Part shown: one piece after another, positions 2 through 43,288 of the stretch
Numbering within the stretch: position 1 is the first letter of the stretch
How the letters are laid out: every line of letters starts with the position of its first letter
Source: an uncultured Actinomycetes bacterium
GTDB lineage: Bacteria; Actinomycetota; Acidimicrobiia; Acidimicrobiales; Ilumatobacteraceae
NCBI GenBank assembly: GCA_937928715.1
Contig: CALEZQ010000157.1
Location: 1-61,262 of the forward strand
DNA length: 61,262 nt
Direction of reading: 5' to 3'
The notes under the pieces: generated by a model
The model's database searches: none
Told to the model about the DNA's origin: nothing
What the model saw: the letters and a program-made list of their open reading frames with translations, nothing else
Program-made: the position numbers and the translations under genes

Positions 2-1219
2 GCATCGGCGCACAGCCTCGCCAGCTCCGCGGTCACCATCGAACTCAGCGAGCACGGCATGACCGGCGACATCGCCCTCGCCGTCGGCTCGCTGGACCAG
101 GCGTTCGACGAGGCGCACCGGTCGGACGCACTCACCGCCGACGCGTATGCGGCCCAGGTGACCGCGTACCTCGACGAGCACCTCACCATCACCGGCGCCG
201 GCGGCACTGAGTGGCCCGAGCAGTACACCGACTTCGACCGTCAGACGGTGGAAGGTATCGAGACCATCCGCGTCGGTCTGACCGTGGACGTCGCCGGCGA
301 CGACCCGAGCGAGTTCACGATCGCCTACGACGCCATCATCGAAGCGGTGCCTGGACACGAAGCAGTGCTCGTGCTCGTCGATGCGACGAACAGCGCGTCC
401 ACCCCGGGCGTGTTCACCGACGACGAGCCGACGATCACGATCGGCGACGGCAGCGCCGACGTCGCCATCAGCGACATGGCGTGGTTCGGGTTCCACCACG
501 TCCTCGATGGCGCCGATCACCTGCTGTTCTTGCTGACGCTGCTGCTGCCCGCGCCGCTGATGGCTGCCGCAGGCAGATGGCGGCGCGGTCCCGGCGTGAG
601 CGCCGCCGCGCGAAAGGTGCTGCACGTGGTCACCGCCTTCACCGTCGGCCACTCGCTCACCTTGGTCGCGACATCGCTCGGCTGGATTTCGGTGCCCTCG
701 CGGCCGATCGAGATCATGATCGCCGTCTCCGTCGGCGTGTCCGCGATCCACGCGATCCGACCGCTCGTCCGCGGCGGCGAGACCCTCATCGCCGCCGGCT
801 TCGGCCTCGTGCACGGCATGGCATTCGCCGGCATCTTGCACGACCTCGGCCTCAACGGGAAGACATCACGGATCGCGCTCTTTGCCTTCAACGTCGGCAT
901 CGAACTTGCCCAGGTGGCCGTGACCGCGTGCATCTTCCCGTCGCTGTACGTGATGTCCACCGGTCGCAGCTACCTGTGGGTTCGCATCGGCGGCGCGGTG
1001 ATATCTCTTGCCACCAGCCTCGGCTGGCTCGCCGACCGGACGGGCCTGACTACCAATCCGTTGGCTGGCGTGGAGAGCATCGTGATCGCACAGCCTTGGA
1101 CAGTGGTCGGTGCAATCGCGACGTTTGCCGGCCTGATGTGGCTTGTCGACCGTCGCTTGGATGGCTTGATGACCCCACGTAAGGTACGCCAGTTTGAAAG
1201 CGGTGATCTGCCCATGTGA
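2..1219 (+). CDS. HupE/UreJ-family membrane protein; 5' end probably lies outside the window
   Basis: The frame is open from the window edge to the first M at 59, and the M59 N-terminus has no signal or TM segment. The C-terminal half has the HupE/UreJ-type signature WFGFHHVLDGADHLLFLLTLLLP, followed by several hydrophobic helices and GFGLVHGMAFAG. Confidence 0.7.
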   Translation, partial: ASAHSLASSAVTIELSEHGMTGDIALAVGSLDQAFDEAHRSDALTADAYAAQVTAYLDEHLTITGAGGTEWPEQYTDFDRQTVEGIETIRVGLTVDVAGDDPSEFTIAYDAIIEAVPGHEAVLVLVDATNSASTPGVFTDDEPTITIGDGSADVAISDMAWFGFHHVLDGADHLLFLLTLLLPAPLMAAAGRWRRGPGVSAAARKVLHVVTAFTVGHSLTLVATSLGWISVPSRPIEIMIAVSVGVSAIHAIRPLVRGGETLIAAGFGLVHGMAFAGILHDLGLNGKTSRIALFAFNVGIELAQVAVTACIFPSLYVMSTGRSYLWVRIGGAVISLATSLGWLADRTGLTTNPLAGVESIVIAQPWTVVGAIATFAGLMWLVDRRLDGLMTPRKVRQFESGDLPM

Positions 1220-3730: not shown

Positions 3731-4017
3731 CATCCAGGCCATCACCAGCAGTCAACTCGATCACGGCGCGCTCAATCGTTAGAGGGACCCGATGGGTGGT
3801 CCAGGTGTTCTGCGGCGGCAGGTTCTGAAGCAACGCGAGTCGGACGGCCCGTCCACGTGACACCGACCGTTCTGGACCGGTCTGTTCCGTCTCATCCCGA
3901 CTCCGGCGGTGAGTACTAGTCGCGCTGCTGGTGGGACGGGCGGCGACGGTGAGTACGACTGGTGAGAGACGGCCGAGTCGGCTTGTCGGCCGCCTGCGTC
4001 GGTCCGATGCGACGCCT

Positions 4018-4033
4018 TGACGCATCTGCGTCA
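4018..4033. promoter_or_regulatory. 16-bp palindrome TGACGCAtcTGCGTCA upstream of the giant adhesin gene; candidate operator
   Basis: Perfect 7-bp inverted arms with a 2-nt centre, about 95 bp upstream of the ATG at 4127. No known regulator motif was recognised. Confidence 0.25.
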
Positions 4034-4126
4034 GAACTCTTGCTCACGCTCGCGTCATCCGAGCTACGCAGCTACGTCATGACCGTCGGCTGCCCTGCCC
4101 CGGCGGCTCGTGACAAGGACCACCGG

Positions 4127-11546: not shown

Positions 11547-12176
11547 TTACTGGGCGTTGCGCGTCGTGGCTGTGGAGTTGCGCACGGTGAGTGGAGCCAG
11601 GGCGAGCGCCGACAAAGACGGGCACGTGGCGGACGAAGCAAGGGTTCGGCTCGACAGTGTTACTCCCGAGATCGAGTTGACGACGGTGGAACATGGGCCG
11701 CCGTTGTCGCTGGCGGTCATCGACCAGTTGTAGACGGCGAACTGGCGGTCACCGTCGCGGTCAGTGCATCCGAGGGCGACCTTGCCGGTGATTGTGACCG
11801 TGGAGAAGATTGGGACCGTCACGGGGAACGACAGCGTTGAGGTGGCCGATGAGACGGTGGGGGTTGGCGAGTTCTTCTGGCTGCACCAGACGGCGGCACC
11901 ACCGCAGGGGCACGGTCCGGCGAAGTTGATCGTGATGACAATCGTGCTGGATGCGCCTGCGCAGGCGGTTCGTACGAACGAAGCGGAGGCGGTGACGTTG
12001 CCCGGAGCGCACTTGGCGGAGAACACTCCGGCCAAAGCCACCTCGGTGGTGAGCAACACCGGGGCAGTCCATCCGACGGCGCCCGCGGCAGCTGCTCGCC
12101 GGAGCAAGGAGCGCCGGTCGAACCCAGGGCTATGGGTCTCTGCATTGGGTTGCATTTGCTGGCGGCTGAGCGTCAC
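11547..12176 (-). CDS. Tat-signal, Cys-rich secreted protein (hypothetical)
   Basis: Twin-arginine motif FDRRSLLRRAAAAGAVGWTAPV. There are 8 Cys, including PCPCGG. It lies 11 bp downstream of the C11 peptidase gene on the same strand. The start is uncertain (GTG 12176 or ATG 12155). Confidence 0.55.
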   Translation of the reverse strand: MTLSRQQMQPNAETHSPGFDRRSLLRRAAAAGAVGWTAPVLLTTEVALAGVFSAKCAPGNVTASASFVRTACAGASSTIVITINFAGPCPCGGAAVWCSQKNSPTPTVSSATSTLSFPVTVPIFSTVTITGKVALGCTDRDGDRQFAVYNWSMTASDNGGPCSTVVNSISGVTLSSRTLASSATCPSLSALALAPLTVRNSTATTRNAQ

Positions 12177-12187
12177 GACCGCTGGCT

Positions 12188-14185
12188 CTATGGTGTGGTG
12201 ATCTGTGCGGTGGCGGTGGCGGTGTTGCCACCGAAGTCGGTGACGGTGAGTTCGAGCCAGAGGTTCAGGCCGCTTTCGAGTGGTACGAAGGTGAGTTCGA
12301 TGTCATCGAGATCCGCGTAGAGTCCGATGTCGCTGGTGGCGTCCCAGGTGCCGCTGCCGTCCGGGGTGCGGGTGTATTGCTCGGGCACGATGATGCCCGT
12401 CGGGTCGGTTGAGAGTTCTCCGTAGCCGCCGAGTGTCTCGTTGTATGCGTAGTAGGTCTCGTCGATGATCTTGAAGGTGTCTGTTTCGACGGTGATGAGG
12501 AGAAGCACATCTTGGTAGGTCTCGCCGGAGACGTCTTCGGGCGAGTAGTACGCCATCGGGACGCTGATTGTTGCTACGCCGGCTTCGTGGTCCCAGACGA
12601 TCGAGACGTAGGCCTCGACTTCGTCGAGGCCGTCTGACATTCGCAGGATGGTCAGGTCGTAGAACCCGGTTGCGGTGCCGTCTGCCGTGTCGCTACCGGT
12701 GGTTCGTTCGTCGCCGAGGTAGGTGATCGATCCGTCGGGAAGGATGACGCCGTATGAGACGGTCGTGTAGGCGATGTTGGTGACTGTTGCCGGGTCGAGC
12801 GCTGCTGAGATCGTGACGCCTTCATCGCTCAGCTCGACCACCGTACCTTCGTCGCCTGAGGTAGCGAATCTCGGTTGACTGTCCGCGGGGATTTCGCTTC
12901 CGACGCGGTAGTAGCCGACGAGCATCTCCGACCACTTCGAGTTGTCGACCACGTTCGCGTATTCGGCGGACAGGAACTCCTCGGTCTCGGGGAAGTAGAT
13001 GGACAGCCCTGTAGCGCCCAAGGTGGACCGACCCTTGACGGACGCGAGCACCACATCGTTGAGGGCGCGGGTGACTTGGTCGGCCTGTGGCGCTAGGTCG
13101 AGGGCCTCAACGCCAATCGCCGCTACCAGTTGTCCGAGGTCGGCCATGTGGGTGCTCTCGACGGGGTCTGGGCTTCGACCGAACTCGAGGGTGTCAGCTC
13201 GGGTGGCACCGAGCACTGGTGCGACGGCTGCGACGCGTTCGTCGATCGCGGTCGCAAAGGAAGCCATCGCAGAGTCGAGCGCAGGCATCATCGTCAGATC
13301 GAGAAGATGCAATGTGATCGAGTCTGCGGTGCCCTCCGCCTTTGCCTGGTCTCGGAACCCGTTCAGGATCTCTCGACCGAGTTCGTCGACATCGGTGTCC
13401 GGCCGCTCCGCAAGCAGTGCGAGACTTCGGTAGTCCCAGCCGTGTCCTGGCTCAAGCTCCTGCGACGCGATCATTCTTCTGGCCACCGGAGCGAGTTCGC
13501 TCGCCACCTCGTAGGTCGCCATGAGGCAGGCGTCGAAGCCGAGCAGATCCAGCTGCGCTACCCCGGCTCGTTCCAGCCCATCTGCGATCGCGGAATGCAT
13601 CTCGGCGAGAGTGAGGACGTTCCCGCCAGCCGACCCATCATCCCCGACCCCAGGCCACGACGCCCCGTGGTCGGAGATGATCAGGGCGTAATGCTGCGCC
13701 GGGTTCAGTTCGATTCCGGTGGCGATGAAGTCAGCAAGAACGGCAGGGTCACCGGTGTCGACGTCGCCGAGGTCCTCGACGACCGTCGCTGTACCTTGCC
13801 CGACTTGAAGCAGCTTCCCGCCCGTCCAGTCCGGCAACCCAAGCACAGGCTCGTCGCTGTAACTATCCGAGCGGTCCACCAACGCAAAGATGTTCAACGC
13901 GTCCGTTGTCCCAACGGCCCCCATCTCGCCGACGTCCGAGATGAGGAACGGCTCCAGGTCAGTGTCGGCGATCGAGTACACGAGCACCGTCCACGACTTG
14001 GCCTCCACAGCCGGGAGGGTCGTGGTCGACGCAGCCGTGGTTGATGTCGTTGTCAGCGCAATAGACGTAGTGGTTGACGTGGACGCCGGAGGTGCCGCTC
14101 GGTCGTTGCCATTGTGACACGACGCAACCAGAGCCACAGCCGAAAGAAGGGCGAGTGTCGCTCTTGCCCCGAGGTGCACGGTCAT
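12188..14185 (-). CDS. Peptidase C11 (clostripain-like) family lipoprotein
   Basis: ORF 12188..14440. The ATG at 14185 is preceded by GGAGAA and gives the lipobox-like signal MTVHLGARATLALLSAVALVASC. C11-like blocks: WTVLVYSIADTDLE, LIISDHGASWPGVG (His) and LLGFDACLMATYEVA (Cys). A Thr/Ser-rich linker follows the signal. Confidence 0.75.
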   Translation of the reverse strand: MTVHLGARATLALLSAVALVASCHNGNDRAAPPASTSTTTSIALTTTSTTAASTTTLPAVEAKSWTVLVYSIADTDLEPFLISDVGEMGAVGTTDALNIFALVDRSDSYSDEPVLGLPDWTGGKLLQVGQGTATVVEDLGDVDTGDPAVLADFIATGIELNPAQHYALIISDHGASWPGVGDDGSAGGNVLTLAEMHSAIADGLERAGVAQLDLLGFDACLMATYEVASELAPVARRMIASQELEPGHGWDYRSLALLAERPDTDVDELGREILNGFRDQAKAEGTADSITLHLLDLTMMPALDSAMASFATAIDERVAAVAPVLGATRADTLEFGRSPDPVESTHMADLGQLVAAIGVEALDLAPQADQVTRALNDVVLASVKGRSTLGATGLSIYFPETEEFLSAEYANVVDNSKWSEMLVGYYRVGSEIPADSQPRFATSGDEGTVVELSDEGVTISAALDPATVTNIAYTTVSYGVILPDGSITYLGDERTTGSDTADGTATGFYDLTILRMSDGLDEVEAYVSIVWDHEAGVATISVPMAYYSPEDVSGETYQDVLLLITVETDTFKIIDETYYAYNETLGGYGELSTDPTGIIVPEQYTRTPDGSGTWDATSDIGLYADLDDIELTFVPLESGLNLWLELTVTDFGGNTATATAQITTP

Positions 14186-14496
14186 TTCAAGTTCTCCATG
14201 TGTCGTCGTTGTCAAGGCGGGTGCTGGGCCATCGACGGCCCGGTGAGCGCGAGGGACGTGCAGGTCTCGATGCGTTGCAGTTCCGCGCCTCGCGATTCTG
14301 AGGCGGGAACTCCCGCGGGCGATCATCAAGTTCGATGGATTTCCTGGTGGTCCCGTTGCCAAGCCCACTGGCGGTGAGCCTGCGCGGCGCATCACTCCAC
14401 CAATTTGGATGATGAACCCGCCGTCGCTGACGTGGATCATGGCTTCCGACTTGCTGGCTGGGATAGGCAGCGAGCCAAGCTACGGGAGGAGAGCAC

Positions 14497-17473: not shown

Positions 17474-19588
17474 ATGAGCGTGGTCCGCTCGAAGCTGATC
17501 GCACGGCTCGAACGTTCCGGGCCAGAGGTCGTAACAGTCGTAGCCGCGGGTGCGGGCTACGGCAAGACCACCCTTGTCCAGCAGTGGCTGGGCCAGCGCG
17601 AGGGCCGGACCGTGATGCTCAGTGTTGGCCCCGACACGGCGGGCGTCGTGGCATTCGGAAGAGCCCTGATGGACCGGTTGGGCGATGTGTTCCCGGACGA
17701 CCCGCAAGTGCAGGACCTGGCTCGCCGGGCGTACGGCACGTTTCCGGACTGGGCGAGGGTGCTCGTTCAACAACTCATCGTCGTCCTGGCGGGTCTGGAA
17801 GTGACGCTGGTGATCGACGACGCGCACCATCTCGACTCAGACGCCGAGGTCGGGATACTGGGTCCCCTCATCTCTGAGACCTCCGGTCGGACCAAGTTGG
17901 TGGTCGTCGGACGACGAACGCCGGCTCTCCCGCTCGCTCGCCTACGGGCGGAGGGTCGAGTCGAGGTCCTCGATGTGCGGACTCTTCGGTTTGACTCCGA
18001 GGAAGTGGCCCAGGCGCTCGCCGGGTCGCCTTTGGGAGAGGCGGCGATTGAACGTTTGGTGGCGCGAACAGGGGGATGGCCCACTGGAGTTCGGCTGGGA
18101 GCTCTCGCCCATGCCGAGGCGCACCCGGAAGCGTCGACACTAGAGAGGTCTCCGTGGTCGGTACACGACTACCTCCAAGAAGAGGTGTTCTCAAAGCTGT
18201 CGAGCGACGAGCTGCACTTTCTCGAGGACGTTGCGGCCCTTGCGCCGACTTCGGCAGAGTTCTGCGATGAAGTGCTGGAGCGCTCGGACTCAGAGCGGCT
18301 TCTGCGCTCGGCTGCCAGCGGGTACGTTCCGATGCTCGATGTCAGCGCCCCGCCGATCACCGTGAGCATGCATGAGCTGCTGGTTGATGAGATGCTCTCG
18401 CGGAGCGCTGCGCGAGAGAGGGGCAGAACACAACGACTTCGCGTTCGCGCAGGCCACATCTGCCGGTTGAGCGGGCAGCTTGATCAAGCGTTCAACTATT
18501 ACCTCCTCAGCGGCGAAGCAGCCAGCCTCGAACGATTCCTGTACTTCCAGACGCTGCCACTTGCGTTCACGGGCGATCAAGGACGGCTCGCCGGTTGGCT
18601 CGGATCAATCCCGGCCAGCCTCGGTCAATCCTCGGCCGTGAACGTCAGTCGGCTCATTTGCGCAGCAATCAACGGCGACGTCTGGGAGACGATTCGTTTG
18701 GGAGGCTCGCTGATGCGCTCGGGAGAGGTGTTGCCCGATGGGTCACCCGCCGGCGAGGTGGCGAAGCTGGTCTACAGGTTCGTCGGAATACAGCCTCTGG
18801 CGCGCTCGGCCGAGCCCCAACTACAAGACTCCGATGCTTTGGGAGCCATCGATCGACTGGTGCATGCGTGGAACGACTGGGCCCACGACAGCGTCGACCG
18901 GGCACTGAGTGCCTTGGTCGCGTTGGGTGGCCCGTTGGCGAACCTTCCGCTTCTGAACGGTGCGAGGTGCTCGATGCTGGCCTTGATCGAGATCTACCGC
19001 GGCAACTGGAGCCGCGCCGAGGACCTGCTCTTGCAGTCGCGAGGCCTCTATGAACGGTGCGCAGCTGATGACCATCCGCTGACCTCGTTCTCGGACGCAG
19101 TAGGGGCAAGGCTCTCGGCTCACGCCGGCGACATCGACCGGGCTACCCAGCTCGCTCAATCGTCACGCCTCAAGATGGCTCGCATGGAAGGCACAGTTGT
19201 CCGCCGGTTGGCAACCCTCATAGAGCTGGCCACCGTCTACCTTCAATTGGAGGACGTGTCAACGTGCCGCTTGCTCGTGGCGGAGGCCGAGAGAGTCTCA
19301 GTTGACTGGCCTGAGGCGACGCTTCTGCTCCGGAACCTGGGGGCCATCAAGCAAGCCGCCAGCTCGCTTCCGCGGCGAACAGGCATCATCTCCCCCCTCT
19401 CGACGGCTGAGCTGAGGGTGCTGGCCTACTTGCCCACCCATCATTCGATTCCCCAGGTTGCACGCAAGCTGTACGTAGCACCGAGCACCGTGCGGAGCCA
19501 GGTCTTGTCGATCTACAGGAAGCTCGGTGTCAATAGCCGCGCCGACGCTGTGCAGGCCGCGAGAGCGCTCGGATGGCTAGAGGGGTAA
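17474..19588 (+). CDS. LuxR-family large ATP-binding (LAL/MalT-like) transcriptional regulator
   Basis: N-terminal Walker A VVAAGAGYGKTTLV, Walker B-like LVIDDAHHL, and a C-terminal LuxR HTH LSTAELRVLAYLPTHHSIPQVARKLYVAPSTVRSQVLSIYRKLGV. Confidence 0.85.
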   Translation: MSVVRSKLIARLERSGPEVVTVVAAGAGYGKTTLVQQWLGQREGRTVMLSVGPDTAGVVAFGRALMDRLGDVFPDDPQVQDLARRAYGTFPDWARVLVQQLIVVLAGLEVTLVIDDAHHLDSDAEVGILGPLISETSGRTKLVVVGRRTPALPLARLRAEGRVEVLDVRTLRFDSEEVAQALAGSPLGEAAIERLVARTGGWPTGVRLGALAHAEAHPEASTLERSPWSVHDYLQEEVFSKLSSDELHFLEDVAALAPTSAEFCDEVLERSDSERLLRSAASGYVPMLDVSAPPITVSMHELLVDEMLSRSAARERGRTQRLRVRAGHICRLSGQLDQAFNYYLLSGEAASLERFLYFQTLPLAFTGDQGRLAGWLGSIPASLGQSSAVNVSRLICAAINGDVWETIRLGGSLMRSGEVLPDGSPAGEVAKLVYRFVGIQPLARSAEPQLQDSDALGAIDRLVHAWNDWAHDSVDRALSALVALGGPLANLPLLNGARCSMLALIEIYRGNWSRAEDLLLQSRGLYERCAADDHPLTSFSDAVGARLSAHAGDIDRATQLAQSSRLKMARMEGTVVRRLATLIELATVYLQLEDVSTCRLLVAEAERVSVDWPEATLLLRNLGAIKQAASSLPRRTGIISPLSTAELRVLAYLPTHHSIPQVARKLYVAPSTVRSQVLSIYRKLGVNSRADAVQAARALGWLEG

Positions 19589-19758: not shown

Positions 19759-22245
19759 ATGACTGCGGCACCGAGCGAACCTGCAGAACTTTATGGCGCT
19801 TTCGACCAGGCGGTGGAGTCAGTTCGCCAGTCACCAAGCTCAGGGTCGGTTCTCTCTGGAAATCGGCTCTGTGTCGCCATGGCGACGTTCGACGACTTCG
19901 ACGGTGCCTGGTTCACGATTCAGTCGCTCCGCCTTCACCACCCCGGCGTGGCAGACCGGGTCTCCCTCTTGCTCCTCGACAACAATCCCGGAGGTGTCAC
20001 CTCGCGGGCGCTGAGGGCCATGGTGGATCAGATCCCGAACTGTCGGTATCTGCCATTCGAGGGGTACCGCGGAACGTCGGTCAGGCATCTCCTCTTCGCC
20101 GAGACGGATGCCGACATAGTGTGTTGCGTCGACTCGCATGTGCTGCTGAGCCCGGGATCGCTTGAGGCAGTGTTGGACTACTTCGATGACGAGAATAACA
20201 AGTTCGACTTGTTGCATGGAGTGCTTCTCGGAGCAACGAGCACTCCAGCCGCGACTCACATGGAGCCAATTTGGTCTCAAATGTTCTTTGGCCGATGGGG
20301 CCTCAATGGGCTGGCCGCAGCGAAGGGAGAGCCGTTCGAAGTGGAGATGCACGGCCTTGGAGTCTTCGCATGCATGAGAGAGAGTTGGCCTGGACTGAAC
20401 TTCCGATTCAGGGGTTTTGGTGGAGAAGAGGGCTATTTGCATGAGAAGGTTCGTCGACGTGGTGGAAGGAATGTCTGCCATCCGAGGCTCGGATGGCTCC
20501 ATCGATTCGAGAGAAACGGTGGAACTCCGTACCCGAACGAACTGAGTGACCGAATCCGCAACTTCCGCATCGGCTGGCGTGAACTTGGCTGGGATGAGAA
20601 GGTGATTGAAGAGCACTTTCGCTCGGCGATAACTGACGGACATCAGCGAGAAGCAACCTTCGCCTTGGTGGAGAGGCAACTCGCGTCGCCGCGACTGCGT
20701 CTAGAGGCCTTGCTGGTTCTGGCGAGCACGGACCAAGAGTACGACTCCACGACGACGAGTCTGCAGGGGATCGACATAGGCTGGCTAGCGGAGCGGGTGC
20801 CGATACCGCAGTCCCCGACCGATGAGCGAACGACGTCCGCTCGGCGAGCGGCCATCGAACTGGCGGGACGCCGTGGATACAACCATGCGCTCGTCTTGGA
20901 CCCGGGCGCGACCCTGAATGAGGCGACCATGGTGGAGCTCGAAGCAGCGCTGAACATGATCGACTCCGGACAGCACTCCGTAGTTGTGCTGAGTCAGGCT
21001 CGCGGGGCCGGGGTGCATCTCGTTCACTCGAGGGCTTACGAAGTCTGGCCGAGCGAAGTTGGGAACGAAGGCAGCGGCCCGTCGCTCACGCCCGCGGTAG
21101 CGCGAGTCGCCGTCGATGTTCCCAACCTTGAACCGGCCTGGCAGAGACACGTTCGCCGAGCAGTCGTGGCGGTCCTCCTGCCCCGAGACCACCTTCCATT
21201 CATACGGGACTGGAGCAAGCACCACCGCGACCAGGGTTGGGAGGTTTGCCTGCTCGACAACACCGGATCTGTGGGCTCCGTCCGCCACACGAGTGCCCAT
21301 CGACGCGACCTACTTGCCCGGCGGCAGAGGCCGAGCCACCACTCGTACACCCAGGCGATGGATGACGGAGAAGTCACCCGAGCGCTGCGAGCTTTGGTAG
21401 ACGACCTTGGGGTGATGGTGCAGGCTTGGCAACCGAAGGCCGAGGACGGCGAGGTGGTGCACGGCCAGGCGGAAGCATACGCCCGGTTCATCGAGGCGAA
21501 CCGGGCGTTCGTCGACTGGGCAGCCTTCATCGACGCCGATGAGTACCTGTGTGCCGGATCGAGCCGCGACTGGGATGACCTCCTCGACCGATCAGAAGCA
21601 CAAGGCTGTCCGCGTATCCTTCTCGACGCAGTTCGCTACGAGCGGCGTTGGAGTGAGCAAGGGCTACCACGATCTGTTCCAACCCTGCAAGCGACATCAA
21701 TACAACACGGCGGCTCAAAGAACCTCGTCAAGCTTCGGGATGTCACGCGTGCAGACGTGCATTGGGCATGGGAATTCGGAGAGAACGACCTGTATGCAAA
21801 TCCCGACAGACTCGCCTTCGGATTCCGACATTACAGGGATGGCGGCAAGGTCGACGATCTCCGGCTCTCGCGTCGCAAGCTGAGTACGTGGATCGACGAG
21901 AGTGTAGCAGTGCAGCCGAAGACCAGTTCGCAGGATCACGTGATCACTAGAGAACAAAGGCGGAATGATGAGATGGCTGTGACGACAGAGGGATGGAGGC
22001 CAAGGTGGAGGGAGGGTCTGGAGACCGCTGAGGTTGCTGATGGCATGGTTGTCTACGGCAGCGAACTCGACGATGTCAGTCACCTCAACAGTACGGCAGC
22101 AGCGATCTTCCTCCTTTGTGATGGAAAAGGCAGTCGGCGCGACATCGAACGCAGCTTTGCTGAGGTCTTCGCGCTGACGGAGCCGGCCATTGAAGATGTC
22201 GACCGATGCCTAGAGCAGCTCTATGCGCAGGGATTGCTGCATTGA
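19759..22245 (+). CDS. Fusion protein: GT2 glycosyltransferase, second GT2_4/GT92-like domain, C-terminal PqqD-like RiPP recognition element
   Basis: ATG 19759 with GAGGGG 3-8 nt upstream. GT2 blocks: LCVAMATFDDFDG, LLLLDNNPGG, CVDSH. Second domain: VVAVLLPRDHLPFIRDWSKHHRDQGWEVCLLDNTGS ... AFIDADEYL. C-terminal PqqD signature: MVVYGSELDDVSHLNSTAAAIFLLCDGKGSRRDIERSFAEVFALTEPAIEDVDRCLEQLYAQGLL. Confidence 0.8.
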   Translation: MTAAPSEPAELYGAFDQAVESVRQSPSSGSVLSGNRLCVAMATFDDFDGAWFTIQSLRLHHPGVADRVSLLLLDNNPGGVTSRALRAMVDQIPNCRYLPFEGYRGTSVRHLLFAETDADIVCCVDSHVLLSPGSLEAVLDYFDDENNKFDLLHGVLLGATSTPAATHMEPIWSQMFFGRWGLNGLAAAKGEPFEVEMHGLGVFACMRESWPGLNFRFRGFGGEEGYLHEKVRRRGGRNVCHPRLGWLHRFERNGGTPYPNELSDRIRNFRIGWRELGWDEKVIEEHFRSAITDGHQREATFALVERQLASPRLRLEALLVLASTDQEYDSTTTSLQGIDIGWLAERVPIPQSPTDERTTSARRAAIELAGRRGYNHALVLDPGATLNEATMVELEAALNMIDSGQHSVVVLSQARGAGVHLVHSRAYEVWPSEVGNEGSGPSLTPAVARVAVDVPNLEPAWQRHVRRAVVAVLLPRDHLPFIRDWSKHHRDQGWEVCLLDNTGSVGSVRHTSAHRRDLLARRQRPSHHSYTQAMDDGEVTRALRALVDDLGVMVQAWQPKAEDGEVVHGQAEAYARFIEANRAFVDWAAFIDADEYLCAGSSRDWDDLLDRSEAQGCPRILLDAVRYERRWSEQGLPRSVPTLQATSIQHGGSKNLVKLRDVTRADVHWAWEFGENDLYANPDRLAFGFRHYRDGGKVDDLRLSRRKLSTWIDESVAVQPKTSSQDHVITREQRRNDEMAVTTEGWRPRWREGLETAEVADGMVVYGSELDDVSHLNSTAAAIFLLCDGKGSRRDIERSFAEVFALTEPAIEDVDRCLEQLYAQGLLH

Positions 22246-23093
22246 TCGATTTTCAGTTGCTTTGGTTTAGAGTGAGAATTGATGCGACTAAAGCGCATCC
22301 ATCCGCGGCCGAGGTGCTCAGCTTCTTGGTGCAGAATGCGCACCAGGACGACCTTGAGCCGACCAGAACCCTTCAACTGGAAGTAGCCGACCGCGGCTGT
22401 GGCTTCCAACTTCGGGAGTTCGGAAGCATTGGACAGTGGGTGGCCGACTCAACGGAGCTCCTTGACGCGGTCTATCAGCTCGTCCATCAGCGGGTCTTCG
22501 ATGAAGCCACCTTCCGAGGGTGGGTGCGACTCCATTCCGCGACCTTCGACCTTGGTAGTACGAGATGCCTCTTGGTGGGTCCGTCAGGGGCGGGCAAGAC
22601 GACCCTGTCCTGTGCTCTTGTGCTGAACGGAATAGATGTACAGGCCGACGAGAACACTTTCATACGGGGCGGAGTGGCTCTGCCGCTGCCTCGTCCCTTC
22701 CATCTGAAAGCCGGTATGGAGCACTATGTCCCGTGCCTTCGGGAACACACAGGAGGGCTTCCGGCAGTGCGAGAGGGAGCCGTGAGAGCATGGTGTCCAC
22801 GAGTCGACGGGCCGTGGACGATTGACAAGCGGCGCGTCGATCTCATCGTGTTTATTCGTCGCGATGCTCACTCCACTCGTGCCGAACGGCTTGAGACCGC
22901 GTCCGCCTTTGGGTCACTACTCGAGCATTCCTACCGCGGATCCGAAACTATCCGCCCGGTCGTCAGGGAGTTAGCGACGGTGCTCAGGAACGCGCCAGCC
23001 TTCTCGATGACCTGGCGGACGGCAGTCGAGGCCGTCGACCAGCTCCAGACGCTGATCAAGAGTGGCCCTACAACCCCTACAAGCGAAAGGTAG
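22206..23093 (+). CDS. HPr kinase-like (HPrK C-terminal-domain-like) P-loop protein
   Basis: LHSATFDLGSTRCLLVGPSGAGKTTLSCALVLNGIDVQADENTFI parallels the HPrK core lHg..v.v.G.GvLi.G.SG.GKS..al.L...Gh.LvaDD. The start is uncertain: ATG 22206 overlaps the upstream gene by 40 nt, and TTG 22242 or GTG 22272 are alternatives. Confidence 0.7.
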   Translation: MPRAALCAGIAALIDFQLLWFRVRIDATKAHPSAAEVLSFLVQNAHQDDLEPTRTLQLEVADRGCGFQLREFGSIGQWVADSTELLDAVYQLVHQRVFDEATFRGWVRLHSATFDLGSTRCLLVGPSGAGKTTLSCALVLNGIDVQADENTFIRGGVALPLPRPFHLKAGMEHYVPCLREHTGGLPAVREGAVRAWCPRVDGPWTIDKRRVDLIVFIRRDAHSTRAERLETASAFGSLLEHSYRGSETIRPVVRELATVLRNAPAFSMTWRTAVEAVDQLQTLIKSGPTTPTSER

Positions 23094-23100
23094 ATCAACC

Positions 23101-23448
23101 ATGACTACACCCGACCACACATCCGACAGCGACTCCCGTCGCGAGTTCCTGATCCGGCTCGGCGCAGTCGGCTTTGCAGCTCCTGTTGTCACGACCTTCG
23201 CGGGCGGGACCGTCTCTGCGTCACGCGCTCCTACTGCCAACGACTCAACAGGCGGGGCAACCACAACAGTTGATGGCCAGTCTGGGGTCGGCTCGACGAC
23301 GTCGACGGTCACCGTTCCCGACTCCAGCACGACGACGGTCGCGAGCCCGACGACCCCACCTCCGACGACCCCACCTCCGACGACCCCACCTCCGACGACC
23401 CCACCTCCCACGACACCACCCCCATTCACGACAGCACCCCCATTCTGA
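23101..23448 (+). CDS. 115-aa Tat-signal, Ser/Thr/Pro-rich protein with a C-terminal (PTTPP)5 tract; candidate modification substrate
   Basis: ATG 23101, 8 nt after the kinase stop, with GAAAGG 10 nt upstream. Near-consensus Tat motif SRREFLIRLGAVGFAAPVV. The remainder is TANDSTGGATTTVDGQSGVGSTTSTVTVPDSSTTTVASPTTPPPTTPPPTTPPPTTPPPTTPPPFTTAPPF. Confidence 0.6.
   Translation: MTTPDHTSDSDSRREFLIRLGAVGFAAPVVTTFAGGTVSASRAPTANDSTGGATTTVDGQSGVGSTTSTVTVPDSSTTTVASPTTPPPTTPPPTTPPPTTPPPTTPPPFTTAPPF
23351..23425 (+). repeat. 15-bp tandem repeat (cgaccccacctccga), 3 perfect copies plus 2 variant copies, encoding TTPPP units
   Basis: Read directly: unit starts at 23351, 23366, 23381 (perfect), 23396 (1-nt variant) and 23411 (degenerate). 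Confidence 0.85.
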
Positions 23449-23645: not shown

Positions 23646-25568
23646 ATGCAGACGTCCGCACCAACCCGTTCCCTGCTCCGAACTCTTTCTCGGATACTCG
23701 CGGTCTCGCGAGAGCAAGAAAGACCAGCTGCTCAACTGTGGCCTGCGCTGCTGACCCTCTCGGAGAGCCATGCGCTCCAGCCAGCCCTGTGGGAAGCAGG
23801 GCTGAGGCGCGGCTGGTGGGTGAAGCTGGGGCCCGATGTGAGGCAGATGCTCGAGTTCAGGCTCGAGGCTGGCCGTACTCACGCTTTCCTTCTCCTGGAG
23901 AGCGCGTATGAGGAGAACGCTCATCGAAACAGCAACCTCCTCGGCCAGATGGAGTCGATCAGCAGCGTCCTGGGAGCCGCTGGGATAACCTTCGAGCCAC
24001 TAAAGGGCATCTACGCAGTTCAGGCCGGTTGGTGGGCCGATCCGACCATCCGAGTAATGCGAGACATCGACATCCTGGTGCCGGAGAATCAGGCATGGCA
24101 CGCGTGGCAGTTGCTGACCGAGATCGGATACGTGCCAGTACACGTCAGAAAGGACCCTGACGCCACGCAACACCTACCCGCCCTACACCTGCATGGGGCC
24201 GTCGGCTCCGTCGAGATCCACACAGCGCTCGCCCGTCGACGATGGGAGCACGTGCTTCCACCGGCGCATTTGTTCAGCGGCGTCATCGACCGAGACACCT
24301 TCGCTGTCGCACACCTTATCGCGAATGCTCAACTGCACGACGAAGGGCATCTTCTCGCCAAGGTGCCACTGCGTTCACTCTACGAGCTCGCAACCATCGC
24401 CAACGGACCACACCGTAAGAACATCGAATGGGGCTACATAGAGGACAGATTTCGGAAGGCGACGGCATCCAACGCACTAGAGGCCTATCGGCGCCTCGCT
24501 CGTCGCTTGTTCTCTTGTGACATCCCGTCCTCCAGATGGTCTCCAAGCGCGGACGCAAGGGCGACAGCTGCAATCGCCCTGTCATCGAGGCCCACCCTTG
24601 CTTCGAAAGTAGAGCCGTTTGCATACTTGCCAAGGTCCCTCTCAGCGCACCGAATGTCAGATCTCTATGGCGTCGACTGGACGTGGCGCGATCGGGTCTC
24701 CCACGTTGCAGGGCGGTCGCGTCCAAAGAAGAGTCACCTACATGTTTCGATTATCAAAGACCCGGGACCCTTTGGCATCAACAACCATACCTTCCTTCAC
24801 CGGTTGGGACTGGACTTGATCGACAGTATGACTGTTTCGGTGAACGACTACGACGCCCAGGCCGATCTGGTCGTCGTCTTCAATCATCTTCGTGAACCCG
24901 TGACCGTCAACGCGCCCGAGAATCGAGTCATCAAGGCTCTGCACGAGTGGCATCATGCTCCCTCGGCGGCGGACGAATACTCGATTGTGTACCCGCTGGC
25001 GTATGGCCCCGCTGATCCTCGCAACAGATTCGAGCCACTATTCGGGCCGTACTATGTCGACAAGCCGGCGGAATTCCTGCTGAACCAGACGCAGCAGAAG
25101 CAGCTCGACCGCGTCGGATTCTGCTACTCGGTGGGATCACCTTACCGTGTCGCGCTCTCTGCACTCGCCAGCGTGGATACGCTCTACCGCGATCGAAGTA
25201 CGTGCAAATGGACCTTCGGACAGAACCACCGATACTGGCTTGCGACGGAAAATAAGGTATCTGATGCCTACATCTCCGAGAAGCTATCGGACGGCATCCT
25301 CCTCGGGTGTTTCGTCTTCTACTCGGGATCTGCAAGAGCATCCGAGCACTTTCACCCGGATTGCTTTCGGGATGTCACGGGACTCAGCCCTGTCGAGGTC
25401 GGCGCTGTGATTTCTGAGGCGATCTCCAGCAGCGCCTACAGCAACGCCCGGGAGACCATACTTGCGGAGCGCAGGCGGCTACTTCTTGAGCGGTCGTTCG
25501 CTGCTCGATGTCGCTCCATCATCGATGAGGGCCCGGCGGCGCGACCAAGAAGGATGCTACTTCGCTGA
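23646..25568 (+). CDS. Fusion protein: NTP_transf_5-type nucleotidyltransferase-fold domain plus GT10 (fucosyltransferase-like) domain
   Basis: The N-terminal half has the NTP_transf_5-like core FEPLKGIYAV...IRVMRDIDILVPENQAWHAWQLLTEIGYVPV. The C-terminal half has the GT10-like motif YWLATENKVSDAYISEKLSDGILLGCFVFYSG (compare FENS...DYVTEK...G.VPVY.G) and an upstream ADLVVVFNH block. Confidence 0.7.
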   Translation: MQTSAPTRSLLRTLSRILAVSREQERPAAQLWPALLTLSESHALQPALWEAGLRRGWWVKLGPDVRQMLEFRLEAGRTHAFLLLESAYEENAHRNSNLLGQMESISSVLGAAGITFEPLKGIYAVQAGWWADPTIRVMRDIDILVPENQAWHAWQLLTEIGYVPVHVRKDPDATQHLPALHLHGAVGSVEIHTALARRRWEHVLPPAHLFSGVIDRDTFAVAHLIANAQLHDEGHLLAKVPLRSLYELATIANGPHRKNIEWGYIEDRFRKATASNALEAYRRLARRLFSCDIPSSRWSPSADARATAAIALSSRPTLASKVEPFAYLPRSLSAHRMSDLYGVDWTWRDRVSHVAGRSRPKKSHLHVSIIKDPGPFGINNHTFLHRLGLDLIDSMTVSVNDYDAQADLVVVFNHLREPVTVNAPENRVIKALHEWHHAPSAADEYSIVYPLAYGPADPRNRFEPLFGPYYVDKPAEFLLNQTQQKQLDRVGFCYSVGSPYRVALSALASVDTLYRDRSTCKWTFGQNHRYWLATENKVSDAYISEKLSDGILLGCFVFYSGSARASEHFHPDCFRDVTGLSPVEVGAVISEAISSSAYSNARETILAERRRLLLERSFAARCRSIIDEGPAARPRRMLLR

Positions 25569-43200: not shown

Positions 43201-43288
43201 CCCGGAGCTCGGTGTGTTCCGGGAGCGCGCCAGTCGGCGCGTCGCTGCCCTGCACGCGACCGTGTTTCCACCGCCGATCACAACCTGA
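40214..43288 (+). CDS. AfsR/SARP-like large regulator (winged helix plus BTAD plus P-loop NTPase plus helical repeats)
   Basis: VRVRVFGPTVVTVDGGEVAV ... AVYRLRRALG is the SARP DNA-binding domain, with a BTAD-like helical region. Walker A: VTGPGGVGKSAIV. Walker B-like: LWVIDDAHW. A long TPR-like C-terminus follows. The start is uncertain (GTG 40214). Confidence 0.8.
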   Translation: MIVGGGTRGVVRYASEGAVAVSDGAAASAVRVRVFGPTVVTVDGGEVAVTPVDSAVLATLVNFVECDKDTLGEYAWRQSPTDRAVNAAVYRLRRALGQAAIERRGDVLSLGRSIGSDLAEFSGLLGGTVCDPAMLRVALDLVTGEPFASLKEHPAWVPIRRRWGERVEGVRDALIDDMLARGDVIAALAATRQQVERNPTATRQIGRLVRLLFDSGRSVEAMRELERASHSFRSRGVDMPRSLVEMERALLKSSAGPSLLPARSGRLYGRDREERVLRSLIFGSTGLRTVRVTGPGGVGKSAIVELLSAAARDAMWVVCISRGDPVQRDAVAAFDALGALLSPGGGAVGENIAALGDLVARATRQVLWVIDDAHWAPRLLEAALSLARRFPDRLVVVAAQRSAPSAAEGLFVCDVPLVGLDPTAVGDWLSDSRVDHDVDALIAATGGEPGRVAAAVEEFRLGGVIDVRSIVKARFNGLTPASRTAIAVLASLGVPVHPAALLQSGVDQVSIAELLAQRWLIVADDRRLVLAHSCLAVVTEFGWLDDVLLCAVADLVPAERRPSEQLRRAEAIALGGPGRVDRVAHHALVACELAESASPEQFVSYCEEAAAIARTAPGFSPEAAMRIKIWLGSALRSVGRVEKGSDELWAAYSAALEAGSVDAAAFAAAAFTNPSVVTSAGMKAEAESLLQRFVDDPELGEFTAVRVAAAHAYHQLDRRSVEVGTTLAREAHRRAAALGPLDEFHVLRNLVAELSYPRTLRDEARRLFRLAVQHGNLSAATSALVYEVCADMRTQQTTFEDPRLDELAAIATSSGNEVVKNRWAGVAVAQAMLAHDVVRVAEIHADVLGRNSGSGEALPFFNRVFGLHTTLASQSNWIELDPAALAGHPTHPSLIVEDDKPIDEAVVAFCRNDSHAAAAALLQMRIGFERQQPAPLAVTRLPAAATLAIRLGDPQVARHVLDLSRQLSGHDLCQLPIVHLGPADVWLSMLAELADDPELGVFRERASRRVAALHATVFPPPITT

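Follow-up and report, generated by a model that had tools for sequence, protein, structure and literature searches.

What does the short Thr-rich open reading frame (ORF) in this locus encode, and is it the substrate of the enzymes whose genes surround it? The window, meaning the whole 61,262-nt stretch of DNA analysed here, carries at positions 23101-23448 of the + strand an ORF of 115 aa, whose translation reads MTTPDHTSDSDSRREFLIRLGAVGFAAPVVTTFAGGTVSASRAPTAND...SPTTPPPTTPPPTTPPPTTPPPTTPPPFTTAPPF followed by a stop codon. Translation and TRF recovered this small ORF as the initial annotation had described it, with 115 aa, an RR motif and a TTPPP tail. The neighbours named there, a glycosyltransferase (GT)-PqqD fusion, a P-loop protein and an NTP_transf_5 fusion, were likewise found by Pfam and NCBIfam. 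The genes and elements around the small ORF are as follows.

17474 to 19588, + strand: MalT/LuxR-type regulator with AAA, TPR and GerE HTH regions (Pfam GerE 9e-8; NCBIfam MalT 3e-40)
19759 to 22245, + strand: 828-aa GT-PqqD fusion (Pfam Glycos_transf_2, Glyco_transf_92 and PqqD)
22206 to 23093, + strand: HprK-related/ScmC-like P-loop protein, a putative kinase (TIGR04352 HprK_rel_A, E = 7.7e-10)
23085 to 23090, + strand: GAAAGG, a Shine-Dalgarno-like element read from the sequence, of putative function, 10 nt 5' of the small-ORF ATG
23101 to 23448, + strand: small ORF
23646 to 25568, + strand: 640-aa NTP_transf_5 fusion (NTP_transf_5 at aa 31-289, Pfam PF14907 9e-22) with a C-terminal domain of ~340 aa

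The kinase-like gene overlaps the 3' end of the GT gene, and the ATG of the small ORF lies 7 nt past the TAG of the kinase-like gene. The GAAAGG element sits inside the 3' end of this gene, which suggests translational coupling. The MalT/LuxR-type gene, upstream on the same strand, is a possible regulator of the cluster. A promoter and terminator scan, and a fold prediction for the 197-nt spacer 3' of the small ORF, gave background levels (z = -1.7). Giant surface proteins are also encoded in the neighbourhood.

The small ORF is a real gene

Annotations of this site disagree. NCBI's annotation of the MAG calls no gene at the small ORF, while antisense ORFs are called here by JGI's caller and in the annotation of a Desertimonas MAG. 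Furthermore, codon-position GC did not discriminate between frames at the small ORF, a word-indexed search of 5.8 billion proteins returned 0 homologues, and an exhaustive phmmer search with aa 1-90 returned 0 matches among 1.84 billion representatives. These observations would fit a chance ORF in GC-rich repeats, or a true gene on the opposite strand (an antisense 152-aa ORF at 22971-23429, - strand, that one pipeline called). Against both stands the conservation of the + frame: its motif, RRxFLKK...P.V.TF, is kept in dozens of genomes with unrelated DNA, an ATG lies 11-18 codons 5' of the RR in most family ORFs, and several RefSeq and GenBank genomes carry sense-strand annotations of orthologues. 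An N-run that falls within the small ORF accounts for the missing call in the NCBI MAG. We thus rejected the antisense and alternative-frame ORFs as the true gene and consider a chance ORF extremely improbable; the ORF at 23101-23448 is a real gene. More generally, gene finders skip Thr-rich repeat micro-genes or place them on the wrong strand, and such genes break short-read assemblies.

Pfam and NCBIfam assigned no family to the small ORF. With both sequence searches empty, its peptide family is visible through genomic context only. Across the six frames of the window, the small ORF alone unites an RR motif with an uncharged stretch and a Thr-rich tail, and the same scan found no second precursor.

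A peptide family accompanies the GT across phyla

Starting from the neighbouring GT, we found small ORFs of the same plan in ~55-60 of 80 loci; ORFs of this design thus recur beside these enzymes in dozens of unrelated genomes. A T-rich scan gave candidates in 54 of 80 related loci and an RR-based scan in 46 of 86; seven further loci have short or non-T-rich tails, and no such ORF was seen in ~20 of the 80 GT loci. The ORFs cluster strongly with the system, with 35 of 43 lying within 1 kb of a system gene versus 38% of bases (binomial p = 7e-9), and they adjoin GT, PqqD, HprK-like kinase and NTP_transf_5 genes. The loci include members of the Acidimicrobiia, Streptosporangiaceae, Solirubrobacterales, Frankia and Rhodococcus, and extend to Alphaproteobacteria, Acidobacteriota, Planctomycetota, Rokubacteria and others. 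Among metagenome contigs, a degenerate leader pattern had 0 matches and the kinase-like protein had 0 relatives.

The gene order of the window is found elsewhere. In the closest relative, the Desertimonas MAG, the small ORF lies between the kinase-like gene and NTP_transf_5, and nine Acidimicrobiia loci keep the order PqqD, HprK-like, small ORF, NTP_transf_5. The kinase-like gene and the small ORF are syntenic in Acidimicrobiia and Rhodococcus; NTP_transf_5 lies 3' of the small ORF in the former and 3' of the kinase-like gene in the latter. Which genes are fused differs between taxa, and taken together the fusions connect all parts of the system. The GT-PqqD fusion is found in the window, Frankia and Rhodococcus, and in Frankia the small ORF lies directly 3' of it, with the other system genes absent nearby. 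In Oricola indica, an HprK-like::GT2::GT25 fusion lies directly 3' of a 74-aa precursor. Tandem precursor copies occur in three loci (two in L015, three in L040 and two in L076). Finally, in seven loci PqqD, leader and tail are fused in frame; of five such fusions tested, four have a PqqD that passes the Pfam cutoff, and one of the fusions is annotated by NCBI (WP_131170531.1).

PT-rich linkers that carry signal peptides are widespread among Actinomycetota. The small ORF could thus encode an ordinary secreted PT-rich protein, either O-mannosylated outside the membrane by a Pmt-type enzyme or unmodified, while the GT-PqqD system acts on another target; the ~20 of 80 GT loci with no obvious small ORF fit such an account. 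We nevertheless regard it as very unlikely, since adjacency survives across phyla and gene rearrangements, Frankia has a two-gene module of GT-PqqD and peptide, PqqD and peptide are fused in frame, and precursors occur in tandem copies. The presence of the small gene, which is often left unannotated, beside the GT in several phyla indicates that it probably encodes the dedicated substrate of the GT. The proposal in the initial annotation that the small protein is a substrate is therefore strongly supported by comparative genomics, namely synteny, the Frankia module and the PqqD fusions.

The loci also have a RiPP-type layout, in which a small gene clusters with an RRE enzyme and encodes a conserved leader and a tail whose length and sequence are hypervariable. 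Neither Pfam nor NCBIfam has a model of the family, which may have been described earlier in the literature. If the substrate assignment is correct, these ORFs define an unnamed peptide family that is invisible to sequence search and often mis-annotated. Cultured carriers are Rhodococcus erythropolis NBRC 15567, Frankia sp. AgB1.9, Propioniciclava tarda DSM 22130, Oricola indica JL-62 and Bradyrhizobium diazoefficiens.

The leader has the plan of a Tat signal and probably doubles as a PqqD-bound element

The N-terminal 40 residues contain the following features.

23101 to 23220, + strand: leader/Tat-type signal peptide, aa 1-40 (translation, family alignment)
Within 23101 to 23220, + strand: acidic n-region MTTPDHTSDSDS (translation)
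23134 to 23157, + strand: twin-arginine motif SRREFLIR, residues 12-19 (translation)
Within 23101 to 23220, + strand: h-region LGAVGFAA (translation)
23182 to 23199, + strand: conserved PVVTTF (family alignment)
Within 23101 to 23220, + strand: c-region AGGTVSA, with predicted cleavage after A40 (VSA/S; translation and position of the AxA of relatives)

The Tat consensus S/T-R-R-x-F-L-K is thus present close to the N-terminus. The description of this motif as near-consensus is apt for S12-R-R-E-F-L-I-R19, with RR at 13-14, except that Ile occupies the K position. Downstream, LGAVGFAAPVVTTFAGGTVSAS forms a stretch of 22 uncharged residues (mean Kyte-Doolittle 1.69), where a Tat signal is expected to have a moderately hydrophobic h-region of at least 13 and then a c-region, and VSA/S lies at RR+26-28, where relatives carry AxA or a lipobox. 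Across the family, the leader is the sole conserved part of the peptide. It comprises an acidic n-region and RRxF(L/I)K(K/R), the latter near-invariant; a Pro ~15 residues on is invariant, and either AxA at RR+26..30 or a lipobox (LAGC, AAAC, LANC) lies downstream of the RR. In the family alignment the second Arg and the Pro are invariant and the first Arg is present in at least 90%. Among 52 T-rich ORFs near system genes, 45 contain RR plus an uncharged stretch, a feature that was not selected for; the remainder are mostly artefacts or have KRR or KR.

Profile searches gave weaker signals. The window leader matched neither TIGR01409 nor PF10518, and its best Tat-model match was to TIGR02811 (16.4 bits, E = 0.008, cutoff 48), so that no curated cutoff was reached. 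Leaders of relatives scored 11.5-15 bits against Tat-signal models versus a cutoff of 16.7, and for the eight leaders searched, Tat-signal models were the sole database matches, all below threshold. Short Tat-signal models often miss true signals.

Tat export and a leader bound by an RRE had been put forward as two readings of this segment, and our data suggest that they are not alternatives. The almost invariant RR, together with an AxA or lipobox at a fixed distance, favours real export. That the leader alone is conserved, has an invariant Pro and is sometimes joined to PqqD favours a specific recognition role. We therefore propose that the Tat-type signal probably doubles as the leader bound by PqqD.

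There are two rival explanations of the leader. In the first, the RR-hydrophobic segment would mimic a Tat signal and serve PqqD/RRE recognition solely, as a pure RiPP leader, and the core would be freed by a protease and leave the cell otherwise or stay inside. The invariant Pro and the conserved, beta-prone P-V-V-x-T-F exceed what Tat requires in a peptide whose leader is the sole conserved part, the segment is fused right behind PqqD in seven loci, and the Tat HMM scores are below threshold, all of which would fit. However, the motif matches the Tat consensus residue by residue (D/S-RR-x-F-L-K-K), with RR in essentially all members across phyla, and AxA or a lipobox lies at signal-peptide distance. 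In addition, neither a leader peptidase nor an ABC exporter is conserved in the loci, and a dedicated leader peptidase was seen in none of them. We consider this explanation unlikely.

In the second, the segment would be an uncleaved signal-anchor, a TM helix (N-in, C-out) that tethers a glycosylated Thr/Pro-rich stalk, with the fused PqqD in the cytoplasm. The fusions of PqqD, RR, hydrophobic segment and tail imply that the N-terminal domain lies in the cytoplasm and that the topology is positive-inside, and giant surface proteins are encoded nearby. Against such an anchor, the uncharged core before the invariant Pro is ~8 residues long, Gly/Ala/Thr-rich (mean Kyte-Doolittle 1.7) and interrupted by Pro, and AxA and lipobox sites are conserved immediately after it, which makes this explanation quite unlikely in our view. 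In the seven fusions PqqD precedes the RR segment, placing it ~91 aa from the N-terminus; this position is non-canonical for an N-terminal signal and would suit a signal-anchor and a pure recognition element alike. For one natural PqqD-leader fusion (P0126), a single-sequence AF2 model made without an alignment had a pLDDT of 45.

The tail is a mucin-like repeat of variable length

Outside the leader that we propose to be both Tat signal and PqqD ligand, the peptide has three parts.

23221 to 23349, + strand: S/T/G-rich non-repetitive spacer, aa 41-83, of the predicted mature peptide (translation)
23350 to 23424, + strand: five TTPPP units encoded by 15-bp tandem repeats, a putative O-glycosylation tract (TRF, per-unit listing)
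23425 to 23448, + strand: C-terminal FTTAPPF and stop codon (translation)

TRF reported a period of 15 with 4.9 copies, 96% matches and a score of 134 at 23347-23420. The five TTPPP units that had been described are present, 1 nt away from the 23351-23425 first given (in frame, 23350-23424), and the repeats, which had been called perfect, are not all so: three are identical copies, while the other two have 1 and 3 mismatches. The mature part is indeed rich in Ser, Thr, Pro and Gly, and the earlier estimate of ~60% was too low; S+T+P+G make up 76% of aa 41-115 (T 32%, P 27% and S 11%; T+S+P = 70%). With (TTPPP)x5, the tail has the Pro/Thr/Ser tandem repeat of a mucin-like domain. Tails of relatives contain (APTTT)n and similar Thr-rich tracts, and several, though not all, end in Pro plus a hydrophobic or aromatic residue (...TLVPF in Frankia and ...PEPLF in L016).

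Tract length varies between relatives, as predicted: four with near-identical leaders (L008, L012, L013 and L028) have tails of 103, 69, 50 and 52 aa. It also interrupts one assembly. In GCA_003455715.1, an independent assembly of the same population, a 200-N run lies within the repeat, and the five-copy count in the window is thus not secure. The locus has no other copies than an identical one on a JGI contig and the gapped one in the NCBI MAG.

The GT-PqqD fusion looks like a cytoplasmic peptide O-glycosyltransferase

The GT fusion has three recognisable domains.

19858 to 20988, + strand: GT-A domain, aa ~34-410 (conserved; AF2 pLDDT ~90)
21445 to 21852, + strand: GT92-like insert, aa 563-698 (Pfam Glyco_transf_92)
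21985 to 22242, + strand: C-terminal PqqD/RRE domain (AF2 pLDDT 84-94; three strands and three helices)

The initial annotation had spoken of several PqqD RREs, and a scan of the window found just one PqqD domain. The GT has at least 438 homologues at E < 1e-5, the best 120 of which all have E <= 1e-101 over the N-terminal half, and a scan of 185,579 representative genomes found 416 relatives. The family has an invariant DxH (D125, H127) and GFGxEEGY, which seem to resemble the DxH and WGGEN motifs of GalNAc-T. Neither single-sequence nor profile searches found a relative of the GT in the PDB. Foldseek placed mucin-type polypeptide GalNAc-transferases (ppGalNAc-T, GT27), enzymes known from animals, and the GT25 enzyme COLGALT1 at the top of the PDB matches of the GT-A domain (E ~4e-12). 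The ppGalNAc-T match is at the level of the GT-A fold (13-18% identity, TM 0.4), and its rank may be inflated by over-representation of GalNAc-T in the PDB. By sequence the enzyme does not belong to GT27, which combines a catalytic and a ricin-type lectin domain, as Pfam found GT2, GT92 and PqqD only. We found no hydrophobic segment in the GT. From these modelled and fold-level features, it looks like a cytoplasmic peptide O-glycosyltransferase, and the adjacent GT and its fold lead us to expect dense O-glycosylation of the repeats.

In the Oricola homologue, a GT25 domain passes the Pfam cutoff. In the window GT, the second, GT25-like domain reads LDPGA where the family consensus is LEDDA, and part of the window enzyme may therefore be inactive.

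The P-loop protein had been called a kinase, an identity that goes too far: it is a distant HprK-related P-loop protein (38 bits versus a TIGR04352 cutoff of 200), 45% identical to the Desertimonas ScmC-like protein. An exact look-up of the kinase-like protein gave no record because start-codon calls differ. The C-terminal domain of the NTP_transf_5 fusion has a weak, sub-threshold match to GT10 (fucosyltransferase; E = 0.099), and PDB sequence searches with the kinase-like and NTP proteins found nothing meaningful.

A model for modification and export of the peptide

Computation reveals a conserved gene, its linkage and fusions to enzyme genes, a Tat-like architecture and a GT with a recognisable fold. 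The explanation that we favour, with some reserve, is that the small ORF encodes the dedicated acceptor of a conserved cytoplasmic, RRE-guided peptide O-glycosylation system, possibly a phospho-glycosylation system. In this model, a Tat-type signal spans the first ~40 residues and is most likely also the leader that the PqqD (RRE) of the GT would bind. While the peptide is held, the GT-A domain, with its ppGalNAc-T-like fold, would O-glycosylate Thr residues of the disordered T/P-rich tail. The product may then be elaborated by the GT92-like insert, the HprK-like P-loop protein and the NTP_transf_5/GT10-like fusion, and the tail could receive additional sugars or phospho-sugars. The small, hydrophilic and bulky product would depend on Tat for export, and signal peptidase I would presumably remove the leader; lipobox variants would be lipid-anchored. 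A mucin-like glycopeptide would result, either on the cell or outside it.

If correct, this model would provide a substrate for a large uncharacterised GT family and for the PqqD/HprK-like/NTP_transf_5 cassettes, which have so far been without one. It would connect RRE-guided peptide modification with Tat export, two fields seldom brought together, and suggest that mucin-like glycopeptides are made in the cytoplasm of bacteria from Actinomycetota to Proteobacteria.

A broader hypothesis, which we offer tentatively and consider possible rather than probable, is that this is a widespread bacterial mucin-type system. Here PqqD/RRE would 'proofread' the Tat signal, keeping the disordered Thr/Pro-repeat peptide in the cytoplasm until the ppGalNAc-T-like GT has coated the peptide with (phospho)glycans, with the kinase and nucleotidyltransferase assisting in many lineages, after which Tat would export a secreted or lipid-anchored coat akin to mucins or antifreeze glycoproteins. 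TorD/DmsD-type chaperones bind Tat signals until maturation is done, a process termed proofreading. The window N-terminus shares the n/h/c layout and RRxFLK of Tat signals, and a PqqD domain holding the leader would parallel TorD/DmsD by analogy only, as PqqD is unrelated to the TorD family and the passenger here is a disordered peptide, not a cofactor enzyme. Were this proofreading hypothesis true, pre-glycosylated intrinsically disordered peptides would be a new class of Tat substrate, and RREs would have a new role.

Comparison with known systems

Mucin-type O-glycosylation (GT27) and COLGALT1 (GT25) resemble the window system in the best fold matches of the GT and in the Pro/Thr/Ser repeat acceptor. 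In contrast to those enzymes, the window GT is bacterial and cytoplasmic with undetectable sequence similarity, and it would capture its substrate by PqqD/RRE where GT27 has a ricin-type lectin domain.

Glycocins such as sublancin (SunA/SunS) are ribosomal peptides glycosylated in the cytoplasm by a GT-A enzyme (GT2) encoded next to them, and thus share a cytoplasmic GT-A beside its peptide. However, their one or two sugars sit on a helical hairpin that is folded, and they use double-glycine leaders and ABC exporters; unlike the window system, they have no RRE, Tat-like leader or repeat tail. Serine-rich-repeat adhesins undergo dense cytoplasmic O-glycosylation of a low-complexity Ser/Thr repeat followed by non-standard export. 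These adhesins are LPXTG proteins of very large size, served by GT4-type enzymes (GtfA/GtfB) and the accessory Sec system (SecA2/SecY2), whereas here peptides of 75-270 aa are combined with a GT-A enzyme, an RRE and a Tat-type signal.

In lasso-peptide precursors, an HPr-kinase homologue phosphorylates a Ser hydroxyl and a nucleotidyltransferase adds hexoses to the phosphate (PMC8498205), a characterised precedent for the HprK-like and nucleotidyltransferase accessory pair. Lasso tailoring (paeninodin, pseudomycoidin) combines an RRE of the PqqD type with an HPr-kinase homologue and a nucleotidyltransferase, and these act on a ribosomal precursor, as we propose for the window. The window differs in having no lasso cyclase or protease and in a leader that resembles a Tat signal, and where the lasso target is a single C-terminal Ser, the target here would be a long Thr/Pro repeat, in a peptide that ends in Phe.

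The HPr-rel-A/SynChlorMet cassettes (TIGR04352, TIGR04353, ScmC/ScmD) share a trio of PqqD chaperone, HprK-related P-loop protein and, here, NTP_transf_5. To our knowledge, the HPr-rel-A cassette is so far without an assigned substrate. What sets the window system apart is a large ppGalNAc-T-like GT, together with a defined peptide that has a Tat leader and a Thr-rich tail. By sequence score, the window system is a distant relative of HPr-rel-A and not a member by NCBI thresholds, at 38 versus 200 bits for the kinase-like protein and 17.6 versus 35 bits for PqqD against TIGR04353. The Desertimonas PqqD alone clears the latter model, with 35.8 bits versus the cutoff of 35.

A small Thr- and Pro-rich protein is encoded beside a glycosyltransferase-PqqD fusion

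The small ORF sits in a run of same-strand genes around a glycosyltransferase (GT) fused to PqqD, a peptide-binding RRE domain:

17474-19588, +, MalT/LuxR regulator, on the same strand as the small ORF
19759-22245, +, 828 aa; GT2-type domain, GT92-like region, and PqqD domain at the C-terminus
22206-23093, +, 295-aa P-loop protein, distant kin of HprK-related kinase A (38 bits against a cutoff of 200)
23101-23448, +, small ORF, 115 aa, translation MTTPDHTSDSDSRREFLIRLGAVGFAAPVVTTFAGGTVSASRAPTANDSTGGATTTVDGQSGVGSTTSTVTVPDSSTTTVASPTTPPPTTPPPTTPPPTTPPPTTPPPFTTAPPF
23646-25568, +, NTP_transf_5 protein of 640 aa, whose additional C-terminal domain weakly matches the GT10 motif

The small ORF is almost certainly a real gene. 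Its ATG lies 7 nt past the TAG of the upstream gene, with GAAAGG 10 nt ahead of it, and the likely signal-peptidase site is VSA↓S, after residue 40. Tandem Repeats Finder placed 4.9 copies of a 15-bp unit (96% matches) at 23347-23420, which in frame correspond to five TTPPP units (23350-23424). The initial annotation described this ORF correctly apart from a 1-nt offset and two details. It called the repeats perfect, which holds for three identical copies but not for the other two, one with one mismatch and one with three; and the Ser/Thr/Pro/Gly bias that it noted is real, but its figure of about 60% was too low (beyond residue 40, Thr 32%, Pro 27% and Ser 11%).

Neither a word-indexed query of 5.8 billion proteins nor exhaustive phmmer against 1.84 billion representatives matched the protein to anything, itself included, and Pfam and NCBIfam hold no model for its family. 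In a near-identical JGI contig an antisense 152-aa ORF is called in its place, and an antisense ORF is also called in the nearest relative, a Desertimonas MAG. The gene is uncalled in the NCBI MAG GCA_003455715.1 because a run of Ns lies inside the repeat: on contig DMQJ01000188.1, otherwise identical to the window, 200 N (5540-5739 of that locus, L001) replace 14 nt (window 23371-23384), and the TTPPP tract is unresolved. Annotation of this family is systematically prone to antisense miscalls, and the members that NCBI does annotate are labelled 'hypothetical protein'. Antisense calls with Gly/Val-rich translations lie over Thr-rich small genes at 3925-4383 (-) of one related locus (L002) and 7007-7285 (-) of another (L004).

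Genomic context reveals a family of leader-tail peptides

The N-terminal ~400 aa of the GT belong to a large, well-conserved family (at least 438 matches at E < 1e-5; the best 120 all at E <= 1e-101), whose invariant positions include D125-x-H127 and G219-F-G-x-E-E-G-Y226. Scanning 185,579 representative genomes with an alignment of 24 members yielded 80 genomic loci of 416 relatives. These loci were scanned for ORFs combining an RR motif, a hydrophobic stretch and a Thr-rich tail and, separately, by the Thr-rich criterion alone. Together, these scans placed a small ORF built on this plan in more than 50 of the retrieved loci. In seven further loci the same leader precedes a tail that is short or not rich in Thr, and no other ORF in any frame of the window has all three features. 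Of the 43 candidates, 35 are no more than 1 kb from a system gene, against 38% of bases (p = 7e-9). An RR motif followed by an uncharged stretch was present in 45 of 52 Thr-rich ORFs chosen without regard to arginine; the others carry KRR or KR, are alternative frames of the same repeat, or reflect a probable frameshift or a contig end. The small ORF is tightly linked genetically to a cytoplasmic GT carrying an RRE, and is very probably a dedicated partner or substrate of the GT-PqqD system.

The conserved part of the peptide has Tat-signal architecture and a peptidase or lipobox site. An acidic n-region (11-24 residues from the ATG) precedes the motif (D/S/G)-R-R-x-F-(L/I/V)-(K/R/Q)-(K/R) and an h-region rich in Gly/Ala; an invariant Pro, mostly 15 residues past the first Arg, is followed by (V/I)(V/I)x(T/S)(F/L/I), and an AxA site lies at RR+26..30 (e.g., ...AQA↓AS or ...AQT↓AN). 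Proteobacterial forms read ...LPxKWT(K/R)PVVxxVVxPAHA↓AS, and in Streptosporangiaceae-type members a lipobox (LAGC, AAAC or LANC) replaces AxA. The leaders match Tat-signal models only, every score falling below threshold. The variable part is a mucin-like acceptor sequence: tails of 25-190 residues are dominated by Thr with Pro and Ala, as (APTTT)n, (TTPPP)n or poly-T, and in the Rhodococcus tail (GSS)n gives way to (TEPT)n. At four loci (L019, L026, L033 and L041) the Thr-rich repeats are followed by His-rich ends (HHHHHHHHH, HHHHHHFF, HHHDHDHDHGH), which might indicate metal binding.

Near-identical leaders carry tails of 103, 69, 50 and 52 residues (L008, L012, L013 and L028, respectively). 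Two other loci, L011 (~4470, -) and L015, share a leader, and the L011 frame exits its poly-Thr tract into an Arg/Ser-rich frame, which reflects misassembly or else a frameshift by slippage within the repeat. Together with the N-run at the window tract, these observations bear out, at the level of the family, the prediction that tract length is slippage-prone.

The GT has a predicted peptide-O-glycosyltransferase-like fold

No hydrophobic segment was found in the window GT. AlphaFold2 with the family alignment modelled residues 34-410 at pLDDT ~90 and gave the PqqD domain (745-828) a pLDDT of 84-94 and the RRE arrangement of three strands and three helices; the model is poor in the middle of the protein. 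This is the single PqqD domain in the window, where the initial annotation had implied several. Foldseek against the PDB ranked polypeptide GalNAc-transferases (GT27) first, with human COLGALT1 (GT25) among the top matches (E ~4e-12, identity 13-18%, TM ~0.4). A sequence search against solved structures gave zero matches, so the resemblance is at the level of the fold, which in the model is peptide-O-glycosyltransferase-like. GT27 enzymes initiate mucin-type O-glycosylation of Pro/Thr/Ser repeats, and the invariant DxH and GFGxEEGY of the window GT's own family are, in an unaligned comparison, reminiscent of DxH and WGGEN in GalNAc-Ts.

The second, GT25-like domain has the consensus RRGYxHVLxLEDDA; the window protein has lost this acidic motif, because RRGYNHALVLDPGAT replaces it (20860-20910, aa ~370-385), and has gained a GT92-like region that its relatives lack. 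A 15-nt in-frame indel (CCCGTCGCTCACGCC, 21078-21092) in the poorly modelled middle makes the window GT 828 aa, against 823 aa in the otherwise identical JGI contig Ga0069787_10260937.

Gene orders and fusions define a core of GT, PqqD and peptide

Nine Acidimicrobiia loci share the order PqqD, HprK-like, small ORF, NTP_transf_5, and their GT gene is divergent. In Rhodococcus the series is small ORF, GT-PqqD, HprK-like, NTP_transf_5; Desertimonas has GT, methyltransferase, PqqD, ScmC-like, small ORF, O-FucT-like, a 308-aa ORF and NTP_transf_5; and Frankia has GT-PqqD, then the small ORF, and nothing else of the system. We therefore take the core to be GT, PqqD and peptide, often accompanied by the kinase-like and NTP_transf_5 genes as accessories.

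Every pair of parts is linked by fusions. GT is fused to PqqD in the window, Frankia and Rhodococcus, and NTP_transf_5 to a GT10-like domain in the window. In Oricola indica JL-62 (L049 4818-7551), a 74-aa precursor whose leader is of proteobacterial type (RRQVM...LPGKWTKPIVDSVITPAHA↓ASS) is followed directly by a 799-aa HprK-like::GT2::GT25 fusion, whose HprK-like N-terminus is a weak match; NTP_transf_5 adjoins on the opposite strand. Seven loci (L018, L021, L027, L037, L038, L047 and L050; Solirubrobacterales, Propioniciclava, Rokubacteria and Fraserbacteria) encode a full PqqD domain, leader and Thr-rich tail in one frame, with an ATG ~91 codons ahead of the RR, joining the RRE covalently to its presumed substrate. 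Pfam PqqD scored above cutoff in four of the five tested, and one is annotated in RefSeq (WP_131170531.1; L038, Propioniciclava tarda). Tandem precursor paralogues at L015 (~4061 and ~4470, -), L040 (3753, 4191 and 4615, +) and L076 (3332 and 3892, +) have near-identical leaders and differing Thr-rich tails.

A model for glycosylation and export

We propose that the PqqD domain would bind the leader, with candidate contacts in the acidic n-region, at the RR motif and along the beta-prone PVVTTF segment; that the GT would glycosylate tail Thr; that accessory enzymes may extend or phospho-glycosylate the tail; and that the product would exit by Tat and then be cleaved or lipidated. O-glycosylation of the tail is probable, Tat export somewhat less so, and for leader binding by PqqD the balance tips only slightly in favor. 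Tat transport has been reported for small unstructured hydrophilic proteins, and a short, hydrophilic, unstructured passenger that has grown bulky could reasonably leave by Tat. Tat signals insert as a hairpin with the N-terminus staying cytoplasmic, and the PqqD-leader fusions are thus compatible with Tat export. These fusions fit equally well with the leader being a signal-anchor or a pure recognition element, and we therefore retain both readings beside Tat export.

To our knowledge, and within a partial coverage of the literature that leaves room for an earlier description, no known system joins a conserved leader of Tat type, a mucin-like core of tandem repeats, a GT-A enzyme resembling ppGalNAc-T, and PqqD. 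The computationally defined HPr-rel-A and SynChlorMet cassettes are distant relatives: the window proteins fall short of the HPr-rel-A (NCBIfam) cutoffs, and the Desertimonas PqqD just passes TIGR04353. RRE-guided RiPP tailoring works alike, as does the cytoplasmic glycosylation of Ser-rich-repeat adhesins and glycocins. A characterised precedent for the HprK-like/NTP_transf_5 pair is lasso-peptide tailoring: once HPr-kinase homologues have phosphorylated a Ser hydroxyl of the precursor, a nucleotidyltransferase attaches hexoses to that phosphate (PMC8498205).

The wider neighbourhood

Further out, the window codes for giant surface proteins, a clostripain-like peptidase and an RCC1/TIG protein. 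The predicted surface proteins, of 2499 aa (3962-11461, +) and 1567 aa (46202-50905, +), both have DUF7507, DUF11 and DUF7617 domains, to which the former adds SdrD B-like and SpaA domains. Over the gene for the 2499-aa protein, an antisense ORF of 1431 aa (6860-11155) is probably spurious. A BTAD/AAA regulator lies at 40214-43288. Next to the clostripain-family (C11) peptidase gene (12188-14440, -), a 209-aa ORF (11547-12176, -) without a Pfam or NCBIfam family has a similar Tat-like N-terminus (FDRRSLLRRAAAAGAVGWTAPVLLTT) and a Cys- and Ser/Thr-rich body, and may be a further Tat substrate or be distantly related to the leader family.
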